Sequence record: NZ_CP119397.1
Strand: one strand, 5' to 3'
Source: a plasmid
Length of the DNA: 64,000 bases
The notes under the pieces: model-generated
Database searches by the model: none
Seen by the model: the letters and a program-made list of their open reading frames with translations, nothing else
Told to the model about the DNA's origin: nothing
Program-made: the position numbers and the translations under genes
Shown: positions 47,583 through 54,444 of the stretch, piece by piece
Numbering within the stretch: position 1 is the stretch's first letter
How the letters are laid out: each line of letters begins with the position of its first letter

Positions 47583-48011
47583 TCAGCCTATACGCAATTC
47601 ATTCAAAGAAATCCGCACCTCCGGCAGCAAGGGACTAAATCGGTGCTTCGTTGTTTTAAAAGGCAGCAGTACTCTGCGCGCTATCTCGGCACTGATCTGA
47701 GTCGTTGGGTAAGGTGTTTCATTATCCCATCTCAGCACACTTACCCGCGGGTCGTCATAACGCAGTCTGACCACGGGAAGATGTGTTAACCCCAGATGCC
47801 GGGCCACGTTTAATCTGTGATTACCGTCCATCACCCAGCCTGATGCCCACTCAACAGGGATAACCGTGGTCCATATTCCTTCACAGAGAATACGCGCAGA
47901 CAACCCCTTTACCGCCTCGCTGCTGATCTCTTCTGACTGCCGGAGACAGGTAATCTTCTCAAGTTGTACAATGTAATTCACTGATGTCTCTGTCGCGACG
48001 TGTTCAGACAT
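47583..48011 (-). CDS. ParB/Srx-fold (ParB N-terminal-like) domain protein
   Basis: DGNHRLNVARHLGL motif typical of ParB/sulfiredoxin fold; start 4 nt after PyrE-like stop, GGAGTAA RBS. Confidence 0.65.
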   Translation of the reverse strand: MSEHVATETSVNYIVQLEKITCLRQSEEISSEAVKGLSARILCEGIWTTVIPVEWASGWVMDGNHRLNVARHLGLTHLPVVRLRYDDPRVSVLRWDNETPYPTTQISAEIARRVLLPFKTTKHRFSPLLPEVRISLNELRIG

Positions 48012-48015
48012 GGTA

Positions 48016-48666
48016 TTACTCCGCGCCAAATTCCTTGAGGTAAACTTCAATTTTTCTTACTTTGCTCTGCGCGTCAGGCGCGCCTCTTAAACACGACAAA
48101 ATATGACCAATGGTGGTTATCGAATAGATATCAATATTAAGCCGCGCTGCCGCACGTTGCAGCGCAGAGCCGGGGCCCTCTGCCCCGCGCTCCTGCCGGT
48201 CAAGCGCCACGAGATAAGCCGCCGGGAGGCCGCCTTCAGCCCGTATCAGCTTAATGCTGTCGTCAATGGTCATCCCTGACGTAATGACATCATCAACAGT
48301 GACTATTCTTTTATGTTGCAAAGCGGCGCCAACCATTAACCCGCCGTCACCATAGCTCTTTATCTCTTTACGGTTGAAGGCGTAATTTACCTCGGTGTGG
48401 AAATCACGCTGAAGAGAAAGCGCAATGGCGACGCCCAGGGGTATCCCTTTATAAGCCGGCCCAAAAATTACCTCAGGGGATAAGTTATTCTCCGAAATAA
48501 AACGCGCATAAAACCAGGCGGCTTTATTAAGAAGACGGGCACTGGAGAGTTTGCCGAAATTAAAGAAATAGGGACTGTTCCTGCCGGACTTTAACGTAAA
48601 ATCCCCGAATTCAACCACATCACTGCTAATCAAGAAATCCGCAAATTCATGCTGTGCGTCTGACAT
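48016..48666 (-). CDS. Orotate phosphoribosyltransferase paralog (PyrE-like)
   Basis: Collinear ~50% identity to E. coli PyrE incl. FGDFTLKSGRNSPYFFNFG and PRPP motif VTVDDVITSGMT; 20-bp overlap with upstream pyrD-like gene. Confidence 0.85.
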   Translation of the reverse strand: MSDAQHEFADFLISSDVVEFGDFTLKSGRNSPYFFNFGKLSSARLLNKAAWFYARFISENNLSPEVIFGPAYKGIPLGVAIALSLQRDFHTEVNYAFNRKEIKSYGDGGLMVGAALQHKRIVTVDDVITSGMTIDDSIKLIRAEGGLPAAYLVALDRQERGAEGPGSALQRAAARLNIDIYSITTIGHILSCLRGAPDAQSKVRKIEVYLKEFGAE

Positions 48667-52301: not shown

Positions 52302-53721
52302 GATAGATCCTTTTAATAGTATTCAGATGCTGGAATATCTCTTCTTTTGGGTAATTGGCATAATGCATCGCTGCAATACGGATAGGATCACCCGCATGGT
52401 ACTTTTCATAAACCATCTGCCGCTGCCCAAAACCGTCACCGCTCAAATCCCATGCCAGATTTAACAGAAAACATCTCTCACCGGCATTTAACGACGTGGT
52501 GCGGAGTGATTCTTCTATGACGGAAGCATTCTCATTGCTGAAATCACCCTGATGCGGCACCGCCAGCATCGAACCGGCAGAAAGTGACTGAATAATTGTG
52601 ACCATCCGCTGATACCATTTAGGAAAATGATACCGGACAGCCTGAATGGCATGAATGCTGGGGTTAAGCAGGTCGTTCTCGCTGACAGCGTCCTGTTCCG
52701 CCAGGAGAATGGCACCCCGCACCAGCTCAAGGCAGGATGTCATCTCGCCTAATTGTTCCCTGACGTTCAGGAAACCGGTGAGCCCCATTTTGTCAGCCAG
52801 TTCGATGGCCACCCCGGTAAGCAGTTCAGCTTTTGACAACCCGCGGACGATCCCCTGGTGCCCGTTATGATTGCGGATGCGCGTTTTGTCATAAAAGGCG
52901 TTGGATTTTTCAACGTCCCGGAAGACAAATACGTCCTGCCAGGGGATAAAGACGTCATTAAACACCATGTAAGCATCTGATTCATCGAACAGGTTTGCCA
53001 CAGGGTGATCGAAAAGGCTGTAACCTGCGTGTTGCAGGGGCTTACGGCATATCAGTTTGACGCCTGATGCCGTCACCGGTACCGCAAAGGCAATGGCAAA
53101 GTCCTCATCGCCGGGCACCAAACCGGGCATGTTGAAAATCAATAATTCATCTGCAATAGGTGCCAGCGTGACGATCATCTTGGCGCCGGAAACCACCATT
53201 CCTTTCTCATCTGATGACACCACACGCACGCCACAGAAATTATTCTTCTGCGAGCCCAGTGGGGTGCCCCGGTCAACCTGCGGGTTGATGGCACCATGAC
53301 CGATAAAAAGATGATGGCGGCGGCATTTTTCATAGTATTTCACCGCATTATCTGAAAAGTCAGCAAATTGTCCTGACCCTAACACGTGGGCATTGTTAGC
53401 CATGGCCGCCAGCGCACAATTGATAAAGTCAGGTGTCCGGCCAAGCATACCGAAAGAGAGGTCGGCAATAGCTTTGTAACTGGCTCTTTTTCTTTTCAGA
53501 TCATCATGATTACGCGGCATCAGGGTGCTGATATGATATGACACCCCGTTTTCCTGATAAGTGAATCTGTCAGGCTGGGATTCCTGCAGATGATAATACT
53601 GCGCAATATTGTCAATCGCCCCCTGAAAGGCCGGTTCCTCAGACACGTCTGTTACCAGCCGGGAATCAATATAAACCTGTCTCGGTGTTTTAACTCTGCG
53701 AAGAAAATCTTCTTTTAACAT
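52270..53721 (-). CDS. HpaB-family flavin-dependent monooxygenase, oxygenase component (4-hydroxyphenylacetate 3-hydroxylase family)
   Basis: Collinear similarity to HpaB (acyl-CoA-dehydrogenase-like fold; GHGAINPQ, VSGAK blocks), 483 aa. Confidence 0.8.
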   Translation of the reverse strand: MLKEDFLRRVKTPRQVYIDSRLVTDVSEEPAFQGAIDNIAQYYHLQESQPDRFTYQENGVSYHISTLMPRNHDDLKRKRASYKAIADLSFGMLGRTPDFINCALAAMANNAHVLGSGQFADFSDNAVKYYEKCRRHHLFIGHGAINPQVDRGTPLGSQKNNFCGVRVVSSDEKGMVVSGAKMIVTLAPIADELLIFNMPGLVPGDEDFAIAFAVPVTASGVKLICRKPLQHAGYSLFDHPVANLFDESDAYMVFNDVFIPWQDVFVFRDVEKSNAFYDKTRIRNHNGHQGIVRGLSKAELLTGVAIELADKMGLTGFLNVREQLGEMTSCLELVRGAILLAEQDAVSENDLLNPSIHAIQAVRYHFPKWYQRMVTIIQSLSAGSMLAVPHQGDFSNENASVIEESLRTTSLNAGERCFLLNLAWDLSGDGFGQRQMVYEKYHAGDPIRIAAMHYANYPKEEIFQHLNTIKRIYRDSLCEPRLY

Positions 53722-53733
53722 ATATCGTTCCCA

Positions 53734-54444
53734 CTAGTGATTGTCTGAAATTATTCTTTGTTGATTGACGCCCATTAAGCAAAGTTTATCTTTAAGCATC
53801 TGAAAAAAATTGCGGCCACTGCCTATGTAAAAATTCGACAGAGAGAAATGTGGCTCATGAATCTGCTGAAGTACATGGGTAATGAAGCTGTTGTTCCGGC
53901 CGGCATACGCTTCCTCTATGGACATAAACCTAAAGTCAGCAGATTTTTCTATAAGGGTGTTGAGATACGGCATATCAAAAGGCGTATGTCCCGTCTCATT
54001 TATTGAGATCAATAAAGTTGGCTGTTTACTCTCATTCCCTGCAATATATTCAGCAATACCTCTTACATAGCTATAACCTGAATCGCAGGCAATAAGCACA
54101 TTGCCATAGTCAGACCGTCGCCAGTAGGCATGGCCGCAGGCTTCTGAAATGTATATCTCCTCGCCTGAAAGGATATCCAGGATAATTTTGTGGGAAGCGG
54201 ATAACCACTCATTGAATCTGATCAGTAATTCTACGACAGCCGGATCATTGTCCGAATAAGGGCCTTTCCGGGATAATACCGAAAAGTATCTTCCCGGCCC
54301 CTTACCGCACCTTATCATGACGTACTGTCCGGGTAAGTGAGTAAAGCCGACAACGCTGATTTTGACAATATAAGTATAAGGATCTATTTTTTCAGCTTGC
54401 GCATTTAACGCTTTCAACAATACATGCTGGCTATCACAGACCAT
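53734..54444 (-). CDS. Fre-like NAD(P)H:flavin reductase (FNR-fold), partner of HpaB-family oxygenase
   Basis: Collinear to E. coli Fre (..GQYVMIR..RYFSV.., LIACDSGYSYVRGI, YIGSGRNFF) but canonical GGTG NAD motif replaced by CDSG. Confidence 0.7.
   Translation of the reverse strand: MVCDSQHVLLKALNAQAEKIDPYTYIVKISVVGFTHLPGQYVMIRCGKGPGRYFSVLSRKGPYSDNDPAVVELLIRFNEWLSASHKIILDILSGEEIYISEACGHAYWRRSDYGNVLIACDSGYSYVRGIAEYIAGNESKQPTLLISINETGHTPFDMPYLNTLIEKSADFRFMSIEEAYAGRNNSFITHVLQQIHEPHFSLSNFYIGSGRNFFQMLKDKLCLMGVNQQRIISDNH

Follow-up and report, generated by a model that had tools for sequence, protein, structure and literature searches.

What is made by an operon in which paralogues of two pyrimidine biosynthesis enzymes, PyrD and PyrE, are joined to a two-component flavin hydroxylase, an M24 metallohydrolase and a pyridoxal phosphate (PLP)-dependent enzyme resembling SbnA? 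The question is raised by a block of reverse-strand genes at positions 46644-54444 of a 64,000-nucleotide stretch, hereafter the window, of the Chimaeribacter arupi plasmid NZ_CP119397.1. We regard this enzyme combination as without precedent in a cluster for a small-molecule antimetabolite. The answer that we favour, tentatively, is that the operon represents mobile specialised metabolism and would make a pyrimidine-derived nucleobase amino acid or a nucleotide antimetabolite, most likely a pyrimidine derivative carrying an alanyl (2-amino-2-carboxyethyl) group. Several lines of evidence speak for it. The enzyme families and their catalytic residues are intact, and the SbnA-like protein keeps the residues selective for O-phosphoserine. 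A serine-kinase gene recurs with the core genes, full-length and SbnI-like in Bacillus cereus and staphylococci, short and SerK-like in Vibrio, Photorhabdus and the window. Finally, enzymes acting on the pyrimidine ring have been recruited repeatedly and from non-homologous sources: class 2 dihydroorotate dehydrogenase (DHODH) here and in Bacillus, class 1B DHODH with PyrK, PreA/PreT, and orotate phosphoribosyltransferase (OPRT).

The operon and its enzymes

The initial annotation of this DNA had described an accessory operon of eight reverse-strand genes, running head to tail with overlapping or nearly overlapping boundaries at 47583-54444. All eight open reading frames (ORFs) are present there in the ORF listing of the window and, with start codons set from homologue alignments and public gene calls (51934 for the M24 gene, 48666 for PyrE, 48011 for the ParB/Srx-like gene), every gene and junction proved to be as described: +12 nt from the Fre-like gene to HpaB, -32 nt from HpaB to NUDIX, -11 nt from NUDIX to M24, +10 nt from M24 to the SbnA-like gene, -4 nt (ATGA) from there to PyrD, -20 nt from PyrD to PyrE and +4 nt from PyrE to the ParB/Srx-like gene. 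The overlaps of -4, -20 and -11 are seen again in Pectobacterium gene calls. Seven of the eight genes significantly match named families of Pfam or NCBIfam (E 1e-10 to 1e-123), and profile, fold and comparative evidence had to be combined in order to place the ParB/Srx-like one; the families assigned earlier were correct throughout. The arrangement is not a chance ORF pattern but a real, co-directional and tightly coupled accessory operon. Only its boundary had to be moved: the unit extends to 46644 because a LOG gene (46644-47207) and a decayed exporter gene (~47300-47470), both outside the coordinates first given, lie downstream. Its GC content is 0.505, compared with 0.598 in the left and 0.626 in the right flank, bearing out the lower local GC that had been noted; the suggested horizontal acquisition also looks right, judged from the plasmid location, the low GC and the different insertion sites in other genera. 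The unit contains the following features:

53734..54444, minus strand: Fre/LuxG-like NAD(P)H-flavin reductase, divergent, 236 aa (NCBIfam PRK08051)
52270..53721, minus strand: HpaB-family two-component flavin-dependent hydroxylase, 483 aa, invariant core gene (Pfam HpaB_N 1e-73, HpaB 4e-44)
51924..52301, minus strand: small MutT-like NUDIX pyrophosphohydrolase, 125 aa (Pfam NUDIX 1.4e-14)
50729..51934, minus strand: M24 metallohydrolase, prolidase/aminopeptidase P-like, 401 aa, invariant core gene (Pfam Peptidase_M24 3e-36, Creatinase_N 2e-9)
49699..50718, minus strand: predicted SbnA-type PLP-dependent O-phosphoserine beta-replacement enzyme, 339 aa, invariant core gene (Pfam PALP 4e-53)
48647..49702, minus strand: class 2 (quinone-dependent) DHODH paralogue, 351 aa (NCBIfam NF003645)
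48016..48666, minus strand: OPRT paralogue, 216 aa (NCBIfam TIGR00336, pyrE)
47583..48011, minus strand: short ParB/Srx-fold protein, 142 aa, putative SerK/SbnI-like free L-serine kinase (profile, fold and orthologues)
~47300-47470, minus strand: remnant of a DMT_YdcZ-family exporter gene, pseudogene fragment (tblastn)
46644..47207, minus strand: LOG-family nucleoside 5'-monophosphate phosphoribohydrolase, 187 aa, last gene of the unit (Pfam Lysine_decarbox 5e-43; NCBIfam TIGR00730)

The closest solved relative of the SbnA-like protein is SbnA itself (5d84, E 3e-54), and its score against the NCBIfam family PLP_SbnA_fam (TIGR03945) is 286.9 bits, below the equivalog cutoff of 349.95. In the alignment to 5d84 it keeps the PLP-binding lysine, the TSGN substrate loop as well as R132, Y152 and S185, the residues of SbnA to which selective O-phosphoserine binding has been assigned (PMC12414870). 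A dehydrogenase of the SbnB type, the partner that releases L-2,3-diaminopropionate, is missing: every ORF of the unit is assigned elsewhere, and none was found among the annotated genes of related loci.

The ParB/Srx-like protein is nearly an orphan, with 10 homologues in 5.8 billion proteins, for three of which PF02195 is precomputed. In the alignment of ten sequences a DGNHR motif, corresponding to the DGxHR of the ParB/Srx fold, is invariant together with S26 and the acidic E27, the candidate catalytic residue; when two further sequences were added, E27 was still invariant and S26 and N64 nearly so. Its direct match to the NCBIfam profile of SerK, the archaeal ADP-dependent serine kinase, is weak (E 8.5e-4, 18.5 bits against a cutoff of 380), and so are the structural matches of its AF2 model (pLDDT 70), for which the top eight PDB entries retrieved by Foldseek are SerK, its Pyrococcus homologue 1vk1 and SbnI (E 0.02-0.4). 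The orthologous short proteins of Vibrio and Photorhabdus match the SerK profile better (7e-13 and 1.4e-7), and in the clusters of B. cereus and staphylococci the gene directly upstream of HpaB encodes a full-length SbnI homologue (PDB 6nr6, E 7e-34; NCBIfam SbnI, E 2e-49). SbnI, in turn, supplies O-phosphoserine to SbnA (PMC12414870). SerK and SbnI have two domains (~240-255 aa), of which the 142-aa protein spans the N-terminal one only. Because of the SbnI-type clusters, the stronger matches of the orthologues and the fact that SbnI feeds SbnA, we infer that it is a single-domain free L-serine kinase, which would supply O-phosphoserine to the SbnA-like enzyme. Rather than a DNA-binding partner, it is best described as a truncated relative of SerK and SbnI; the labels in public records, "transcriptional regulator" and "ParB N-terminal domain protein", would be corrected likewise.

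Both pyrimidine paralogues exceed the thresholds of their NCBIfam models, the PyrD-like protein with 411.5 (NF003645, cutoff 366) and the PyrE-like protein with 155 (TIGR00336, cutoff 106.8). Their overall identity to the E. coli enzymes is 40% for PyrD and 42% for PyrE, lower than the roughly 50% first estimated from conserved blocks. In the PyrD-like protein the catalytic serine is preserved, as are all Lys and Asn residues in contact with orotate (equivalents of K66, N111, N172, S175, N177 and N246), and the PyrE-like protein keeps K26, F34, F35, K73, R99, K100, K103, D124, D125, T128 and R156, with H105 to Y as the only replacement. By sequence, therefore, they appear to be a competent DHODH and a competent OPRT without sign of an altered substrate pocket, and the idea that they were re-specialised for a modified ring finds no visible counterpart in their catalytic and orotate-contacting residues. 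PyrE has just two closer cluster representatives (>50% identity) among 1.84 billion proteins. A candidate signature of PyrE re-specialisation, F37 with S129, was rejected: it is present in all cluster copies and likewise in 14-22% of the nearest OPRT representatives, and the catalytic residues are unchanged. No orotidine 5'-monophosphate (OMP) decarboxylase is encoded in the window or in the ~95 related loci.

The HpaB-like protein contains both HpaB domains, and its closest solved relative is the Thermus HpaB 2yyg (E 6e-87). The phenol-activating R100 and H142 are kept; Y104 is replaced by F, and S197/T198, which bind the carboxylate of 4-hydroxyphenylacetate, by M/P. The protein stays below the HpaB-1 equivalog for 4-hydroxyphenylacetate 3-monooxygenase (364 bits, cutoff 480.2) and looks like a C-hydroxylase. 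The Fre-like reductase, which presumably supplies it with FADH2, matches PRK08051 across almost its full length with E 1.2e-15, under the curated cutoff, and has no Pfam match; actinomycete and Pseudomonas clusters hold the unrelated flavin reductases FMN_red or Flavin_Reduct instead. The NUDIX protein comes nearest to the NCBIfam models for pyrimidine (d)NTP diphosphatase and MutT, without reaching the cutoff of any. Wherever a locus outside the actinomycetes has NUDIX, the gene is placed between HpaB and M24. In one metagenome-assembled genome (MAG) of the Rickettsiales HpaB and NUDIX form a single 599-aa ORF (locus L027, 8191-9990); as general Rosetta-stone evidence this HpaB-NUDIX fusion was dismissed, being shared by 0 of 85 relatives at E <= 1e-30, and it may be lineage-specific or an assembly artefact. 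The M24 protein, whose start at 51934 agrees with homologues and public 401-aa gene calls, has prolidases as closest solved relatives and the metal ligands D259, D270, H334, E363 and E377, invariant in an alignment of five sequences.

The LOG protein scores 184.9 bits against TIGR00730 (cutoff 96.35), shows the motifs YGGGHVGLMG and LPGGAGTLEE, conforming to the family's GGGxxGLM and PGGxGTxxE, and is closest to solved bacterial LOG enzymes (5zbj, E 2e-55); it stays below the equivalog cutoff for cytokinin LOG (143 against 300). The gene occurs in most related loci with nucleotide genes (type A, see below) across phyla, and its position is conserved in other genera. The 375-nt gap separating it from the kinase-like gene contains the exporter remnant, found by tblastn with a Pectobacterium DMT_YdcZ protein (42% identity over 67 aa, E 9e-7). 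In the versions of Pectobacterium, Photorhabdus and Bacillus the same place is taken by an intact DMT_YdcZ gene; in the plasmid copy the dedicated exporter is lost.

Recurrence of the core and exchange of its modules

Recurrence of the eight-gene synteny in other genomes had been put forward as a test of the operon. It was surveyed by an M24 alignment scan of one genome per species, by tblastn with all window proteins and by further context look-ups, and high-GC loci were annotated with explicit ORFs and Pfam. The gene set recurs widely across phyla, in two architectures built around an invariant trio of HpaB, M24 and PALP, the last being the Pfam family of the SbnA-like enzyme. Type A adds NUDIX and OPRT, usually DHODH and LOG, often the serine kinase, and an exporter. 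It is found in five Pectobacterium species, Dickeya zeae, Photorhabdus antumapuensis and a Vibrio; in the B. cereus group, where it is present on hundreds of contigs, ~300-kb plasmids among them, as well as in other Bacillus and in five Paenibacillus; in Staphylococcus cohnii-type genomes, 25-kb skin plasmids of Staphylococcus epidermidis and Macrococcus plasmids; and also in Sphingorhabdus, the Rickettsiales MAG, Streptomyces shenzhenensis and a Nocardia. In type B, which has no gene for pyrimidine or nucleotide enzymes, the trio is joined by a flavin reductase, an AsnB-like amidotransferase that depends on glutamine (N-terminal MCG) and a transporter of the MFS family; its hosts are several Pseudomonas, Nocardia camponoti, Streptomyces ipomoeae, Streptomyces hygroscopicus and Streptomyces pathocidini.

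The distribution is patchy at the strain level. The insertion sites in the chromosomes of Pectobacterium, Dickeya and Photorhabdus are unrelated; the Dickeya cluster adjoins metal transport genes of the znuA type, and the Pectobacterium cluster lies near a TonB-dependent receptor. The cluster is absent from 5,426 complete E. coli genomes, and no near-identical DNA was found in the plasmid or E. coli collections. As main cargo it is carried by skin plasmids of S. epidermidis (NZ_CP121498.1, 24.9 kb, cluster at 1654-10805; CP052964.1; NZ_CP121506.1; NZ_CP121491.1), in the order LOG, SbnI-like, HpaB, NUDIX, M24, PALP, pyrE, HD, oxidoreductase and MFS, plus a MerR regulator; this cargo role on a 25-kb plasmid suits a competition factor. 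Exporters of several families, among them DMT, MATE and MFS, are attached to the different versions, and the MFS proteins of the Paenibacillus clusters resemble nucleoside:H+ symporters.

The genes beside the core are freely exchanged for others of like activity. In type A clusters of actinomycetes the class 2 enzyme gives way to a DHODH of class 1B and its PyrK-like iron-sulfur subunit, the order being FMN_red, PyrK-like, class 1B DHODH, phosphoribosyltransferase (PRTase) and then NUDIX in Streptomyces or LOG in Nocardia (loci L063, 13493-17236, and L079, 13035-17337). MazG takes the place of NUDIX in Bacillus changyiensis; LOG is swapped for HAD or HD hydrolases in some clusters, and HAD (one of them weakly YjjG-like), HD and a second NUDIX occur in Paenibacillus and staphylococci. 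On a contig of the B. cereus group (NUFV01000036; locus L093, 958-3599) PreT-like and PreA genes stand beside the cluster, with extra NUDIX and HAD genes, and PreA reaches an equivalog score of 672 (cutoff 335) as NAD-dependent dihydropyrimidine dehydrogenase. The homologous PreT/PreA enzymes of gut bacteria inactivate 5-fluorouracil. OPRT is present in nearly all type A loci, and five superfamilies of nucleotide phosphohydrolases accompany the core (NUDIX, MazG, YjjG-like HAD, HD and LOG). What is conserved, as far as the predicted functions of these proteins go, are thus the activities, namely DHODH, OPRT, nucleotide pyrophosphatase and nucleotide N-glycosidase or phosphatase, rather than particular proteins.

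In a neighbour-joining tree of the concatenated HpaB, M24 and PALP sequences, based on simple distances, types A and B are interleaved, and the core of the type A cluster of S. shenzhenensis 193 is 81% identical to that of the type B cluster of S. ipomoeae NRRL B-12321. No PyrK, PyrD, PRTase or NUDIX gene was found within 10 kb of the type B loci. Since the types interleave and carry such similar cores, the same core chemistry seems to run with either of two mutually exclusive add-ons. The pyrimidine module is thus not obligatory for the pathway; it is replaced wholesale, on an 81% identical core, by the AsnB-like amidotransferase and the MFS transporter, and this opens the way for an explanation by self-protection. 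The type B AsnB was also considered as a beta-lactam synthetase acting on an SbnA-type product and rejected as such, since its N-terminal Cys (MCG...), the nucleophile in glutamine amidotransferases, is retained.

One further context bears on the product. In Sphingorhabdus sp. EL138 (locus L023, 4051-20959) LOG, HpaB, NUDIX, M24 and PALP lie inside a larger cluster with a MATE exporter, a FabH-like protein, an adenylation-carrier (A-PCP) didomain directly after PALP, a FabA-like protein, two ketosynthases, a ketoreductase and a phosphopantetheinyl transferase. Because of this adenylation-carrier context the core product can be thought of as an acid or amino acid which is activatable and extendable, and the gene content suggests that Sphingorhabdus makes an acylated or extended derivative of it.

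Parts of the core also occur in other combinations. Two loci from cyanobacterial MAGs (L070, 2232-12245; L013, 172-3309) have a reduced variant consisting of an S-adenosylmethionine-dependent methyltransferase, M24 and PALP without HpaB, which in L070 adjoins an OvoA-like protein (DinB_2, FGE-sulfatase and methyltransferase) and a large PLP decarboxylase-like protein. Many loci of Streptomyces, Actinoplanes, Micromonospora and Nocardiopsis contain an AsnB-PALP-M24 triad, in which PALP is 36-45% and M24 35-41% identical to the window proteins (loci L038, L041, L044, L046-L056, L061, L062, L066, L069, L073, L075, L076, L078, L081 and L083).

Biosynthesis, self-protection and other explanations

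The enzyme families with their intact active sites, the O-phosphoserine signature and the way in which the genes occur together allow a route to a pyrimidine-derived antimetabolite to be drawn as follows. The SerK/SbnI-like kinase would convert serine to O-phosphoserine, and PyrD and PyrE would maintain a dedicated pool of orotate and OMP, from which uridine 5'-monophosphate (UMP) would be reached via the OMP decarboxylase of the host, as no version of the cluster encodes one. The HpaB-type hydroxylase together with the Fre-like reductase would hydroxylate an enolisable ring ortho to an oxo group, at C5, and the SbnA-type enzyme would transfer an aminoacrylate unit generated from O-phosphoserine to a ring nitrogen or to the new hydroxyl group. 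M24 would hydrolyse an amide, at a position in the route which we leave unassigned. Modified nucleotides present as di- or triphosphates could be brought back to the monophosphate by NUDIX, LOG could cleave the N-glycosidic bond and so release the free modified base or base-amino acid, and the exporter, whose DMT gene is decayed on this plasmid, would remove the product. The AsnB of type B and the PRTase route of type A might then represent alternative fates of one carboxylate-bearing intermediate, namely amidation versus ribosylation followed by the decarboxylase of the host. Nucleotide-level chemistry, release by NUDIX and LOG and a beta-substituted alanine had all been part of the logic first proposed, and these elements fit the comparative data, in particular the adenylation-carrier protein of Sphingorhabdus and the recurrent serine-kinase genes. 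The sbn operon duplicates the central-metabolism enzymes SbnI and SbnG, which uncouples its pathway from primary metabolism (PMC12414870); by analogy, PyrD, PyrE and the serine kinase may uncouple the present pathway from central metabolism.

Several observations weigh against this route. The type B core, 81% identical, comes without nucleotide genes, and the core chemistry therefore needs no cluster-encoded nucleotide module. The make-up of that module varies, PyrD often being absent and LOG, HAD, HD and a second NUDIX occurring in differing combinations, and in this it looks more like sanitation than like a fixed biosynthetic route. The active sites of PyrD and PyrE show no change pointing to a modified substrate, the HpaB-NUDIX fusion is a singleton, and HpaB enzymes are, to our knowledge, known for acting on phenols and not on pyrimidines. 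The role of M24 is unexplained under this and every other model.

A less probable, though still serious, explanation assigns the nucleotide genes to self-protection. HpaB/Fre, M24, the SbnA-like enzyme and the serine kinase alone would make a toxic beta-substituted alanine, or a heterocycle derived from it, that hits pyrimidine or nucleotide metabolism; PyrD, PyrE, NUDIX, LOG and the exporter would act as a safeguard by raising the pool of orotate, OMP and UMP, reverting the analogue nucleotide to the base and exporting it. Canonical active sites in PyrD and PyrE fit work on normal substrates, and the exchange of non-homologous proteins of like activity (class 1B for class 2 DHODH; NUDIX for MazG; LOG for HAD or HD) with varying content is in line with such a role, as is the lack of the module in type B clusters with an 81% identical core. 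One of the HAD members, moreover, weakly resembles YjjG, from a family of non-canonical pyrimidine nucleotidases. A precedent exists in minimycin biosynthesis, where MinD, a uracil PRTase, raises the UMP pool, the N-terminal phosphatase of MinC dephosphorylates minimycin monophosphate and MinT exports (PMC8724604). This explanation has difficulties of its own, however: NUDIX is embedded between HpaB and M24 with overlapping frames across phyla, an additional OPRT would work against the producer in the case of a toxin resembling orotate, PyrD and PyrE carry no visible target-like mutation, boosting steps that follow the regulated aspartate transcarbamoylase is an indirect way to more UMP, and the AsnB of type B remains without a role. 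Common to self-protection and to the biosynthetic route that we favour is the assumption that a product or an intermediate enters nucleotide pools, which we regard as somewhat more probable than not.

It is unlikely that the core makes a pseudo-dipeptide or a diaminopropionate building block, in which case the SbnA-like enzyme would join O-phosphoserine to the amine of an amino acid, trimming of the product would fall to M24 and hydroxylation of an aromatic partner to HpaB (giving, for instance, a metallophore or peptide precursor), and the pyrimidine genes would be unrelated companions in transfer. Amino-acid amines are indeed used by SbnA, the closest solved relative, as well as by CmnB, AMA synthase and Tln5 (bioRxiv 10.1101/2025.10.30.685158), and Tln5 is a characterised enzyme from the setting of the PALP-M24(-AsnB) triads in actinomycete clusters. 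The metal transport genes beside the Dickeya cluster, the TonB-dependent receptor near that of Pectobacterium and the A-PCP didomain right after the Sphingorhabdus PALP point in the same direction. Yet in the window translational coupling (-4 and -20 nt overlaps) ties the genes for pyrimidine and nucleotide enzymes to the core, they recur with it in at least five phyla, with non-orthologous replacements, for which hitch-hiking is hard to argue, and a partner of the SbnB type is lacking.

More improbable still is a pathway which degrades or salvages a pyrimidine, a nucleoside or a heterocyclic amino acid of external origin, proceeding by ribosylation, hydroxylation and ring opening by M24. Degradation of pyrimidines at the nucleotide level does exist, in the URC pathway of yeast; the PreTA dihydropyrimidine dehydrogenase beside the B. 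cereus cluster and the nucleoside:H+ symporter-like MFS proteins of Paenibacillus would agree with it. Nevertheless, the serine kinase and the beta-replacement enzyme that depends on O-phosphoserine belong to anabolism, DHODH and OPRT serve biosynthesis, some versions have transporters of exporter type (DMT, MATE) or an A-PCP/ketosynthase context, and the cluster forms the main cargo of small plasmids and is patchy among strains.

That PyrD and PyrE are simply the housekeeping pyrimidine genes of the host in an unusual arrangement we consider very improbable: both do exceed curated equivalog thresholds and look fully functional, but they lie on a plasmid, in DNA of GC 0.505 between flanks of 0.60-0.63, with 40-42% identity to E. 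coli, the same block occupies unrelated sites in Pectobacterium, Dickeya and Photorhabdus, which have ordinary pyr genes, it is absent from all the complete E. coli genomes surveyed, and the DHODH class in the clusters (2 in Bacillus, 1B in Streptomyces) is the opposite of that usual for the host.

Two other ideas were tried and rejected. An anti-phage defence system is not indicated by PADLOC, which matches NUDIX alone, to the candidate model PDC-S07, and none of the other eight proteins. A logic as in D-cycloserine, with N-hydroxylation, creatinase-like release of hydroxyurea and O-ureidoserine, disagrees with an M24 protein that keeps five metal ligands and is nearest to prolidases, creatinases being metal-free, and with an HpaB that looks like a C-hydroxylase.

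If the operon does make a new nucleobase or nucleotide antimetabolite, it would constitute a compact pathway of 9-10 genes, expressible as a unit, with an enzyme logic for which no precedent has been described, in that a flavin hydroxylase of the phenol type would work with an enzyme of the SbnA type beside DHODH, OPRT, NUDIX and LOG. The single core with its two mutually exclusive add-on modules offers a natural experiment separating biosynthesis from self-protection, and candidate biocatalysts can be found among the short single-domain serine kinases, the O-phosphoserine-dependent alkylating enzymes and an HpaB with a putative non-phenolic substrate. The hosts include the soft-rot genera Pectobacterium and Dickeya, Photorhabdus, megaplasmids of the B. 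cereus group, Paenibacillus popilliae and skin staphylococci with small plasmids, and because the cluster is common in those organisms it could explain strain-level antagonism in plant, insect and skin microbiomes. Some skin strains of S. epidermidis are reported to secrete the nucleobase analogue 6-N-hydroxyaminopurine, whose biosynthetic genes were left unidentified in the 2018 paper, where only 28 producer-specific marker genes are listed (PMC5834004). That the plasmid-borne cluster of S. epidermidis is the basis of this activity is a speculative and improbable link; N6-substituted AMP is the typical substrate of LOG enzymes, but the OPRT and DHODH genes point to pyrimidines. The most far-reaching interpretation, less probable than not, is that the operon family embodies a new nucleotide-templated route to nucleobase-analogue antimetabolites, in which orotate/OMP or another nucleotide would be hydroxylated by the HpaB-type enzyme, alkylated from O-phosphoserine and released by LOG, which includes a kit for sanitation of the nucleotide pool, has spread on plasmids and islands and, in the S. 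epidermidis plasmids, could underlie the 6-N-hydroxyaminopurine activity.

Neighbouring DNA and known systems

Upstream of the first gene lies a spacer in which we presume the promoter or regulatory region of the operon:

54445..55088, minus strand: AT-rich non-coding spacer of ~640 nt, GC 0.436 (no ORF >= 60 aa)

No riboswitch or leader RNA was detected in it by Rfam at E <= 0.1. It holds a terminator-like hairpin for the upstream LysR gene (55038-55023) and an imperfect inverted repeat of 26 nt (54699-54724 and 54978-55003; 81% complementary, 253 nt apart), which could be a regulatory site or an insertion scar. The LysR-family gene itself (55060-55952, minus strand), just upstream of the operon, has its last ~30 codons out of frame; a frame shift near 55150 restores the canonical LysR C-terminus. 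Either the gene is a frameshifted pseudogene, or a T/C run in it was misread in sequencing. With 26-28% identity, it is no orthologue of the LysR beside the Pectobacterium cluster. Given the exporter remnant and the frameshifted LysR, the plasmid copy of the operon is possibly no longer fully functional.

Further away, a 644-aa ORF with a signal-peptide-like N-terminus and no Pfam match (42151-44085, minus strand) lies in a low-GC island (0.37-0.39) and adjoins two aldo-keto reductase genes; it is probably a separate, horizontally acquired orphan gene. On the other side, TreY/TreZ-like maltooligosyl-trehalose genes of GC 0.63 (56154-60475, minus strand) are followed by another low-GC stretch (60.5-62 kb) and, just past it, a gene of the phage-integrase family (62328-63425, plus strand). 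The trehalose genes, the integrase and the low-GC stretch fit a mosaic plasmid.

The initial view that no characterised pathway has this gene set holds in the full-text literature searched, where we found a pathway neither for this gene set nor for bacterial willardiine-type products, 5-hydroxyorotate or orotate-derived natural products; among NCBIfam models (June 2026) none names any protein of the operon specifically, and PADLOC has no specific model either. The only part of the cluster with a characterised counterpart is the SbnA/SbnI pair. With the sbn operon for staphyloferrin B of Staphylococcus aureus it shares the PLP enzyme with R132, Y152 and S185 and a ParB/Srx-fold protein, here a putative serine kinase, which would duplicate a step of central metabolism. 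It differs from sbn in having neither SbnB nor siderophore synthetases, in its sub-threshold scores and its single-domain kinase-like protein of 142 aa, and in its partners, here the pyrimidine and nucleotide enzymes together with the flavin hydroxylase and the M24 hydrolase.

Another likeness concerns the nucleotide genes. Modification of a base on the nucleotide followed by N-glycosidic release is known from cytokinins (IPT, then LOG) and bacimethrin (CMP hydroxymethylase, then N-glycosidase), and tubercidin biosynthesis employs a PRTase and a Nudix enzyme. As in these systems, one cluster brings together a PRTase or a substrate at the nucleotide level, a pyrophosphatase of the Nudix type and a nucleotide N-glycosidase of the LOG type; the PRTase of the present operon, however, is of the orotate type and accompanied by DHODH, and enzymes of the HpaB, SbnA and M24 types are absent from those pathways. 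The minimycin cluster is comparable in that it encodes a pyrimidine PRTase, a nucleotide hydrolase and an exporter within an antimetabolite cluster. Its core, by contrast, consists of a non-ribosomal peptide synthetase and a C-glycoside synthase, whereas here the PRTase is by sequence orotate-specific and associated with DHODH, and the hydrolases are NUDIX and LOG.

For the SbnA-like enzyme two comparisons remain. The uracilylalanine synthases of plants, which use O-acetylserine and free uracil, illustrate that a fold-type II PLP beta-replacement enzyme could place an alanyl unit on a pyrimidine nitrogen, but they come without a gene cluster, hydroxylase or nucleotide enzymes, and no bacterial pathway has been described. 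Their products, willardiine and isowillardiine, are known from higher plants only, and the synthases are cysteine-synthase-like (PMC9611319). Tln5 of the TLN-05220 cluster, which makes a serine-D-alanine pseudo-dipeptide and whose M24 partner has no assigned role (bioRxiv 10.1101/2025.10.30.685158), belongs, like AMA synthase, to the O-phosphoserine-dependent SbnA family and shares with the operon the PALP-M24 pair, which in actinomycetes stands beside AsnB-type enzymes; these proteins are 36-45% identical to the window enzyme, lie in polyketide clusters devoid of HpaB and pyrimidine genes, and use the amines of amino acids.

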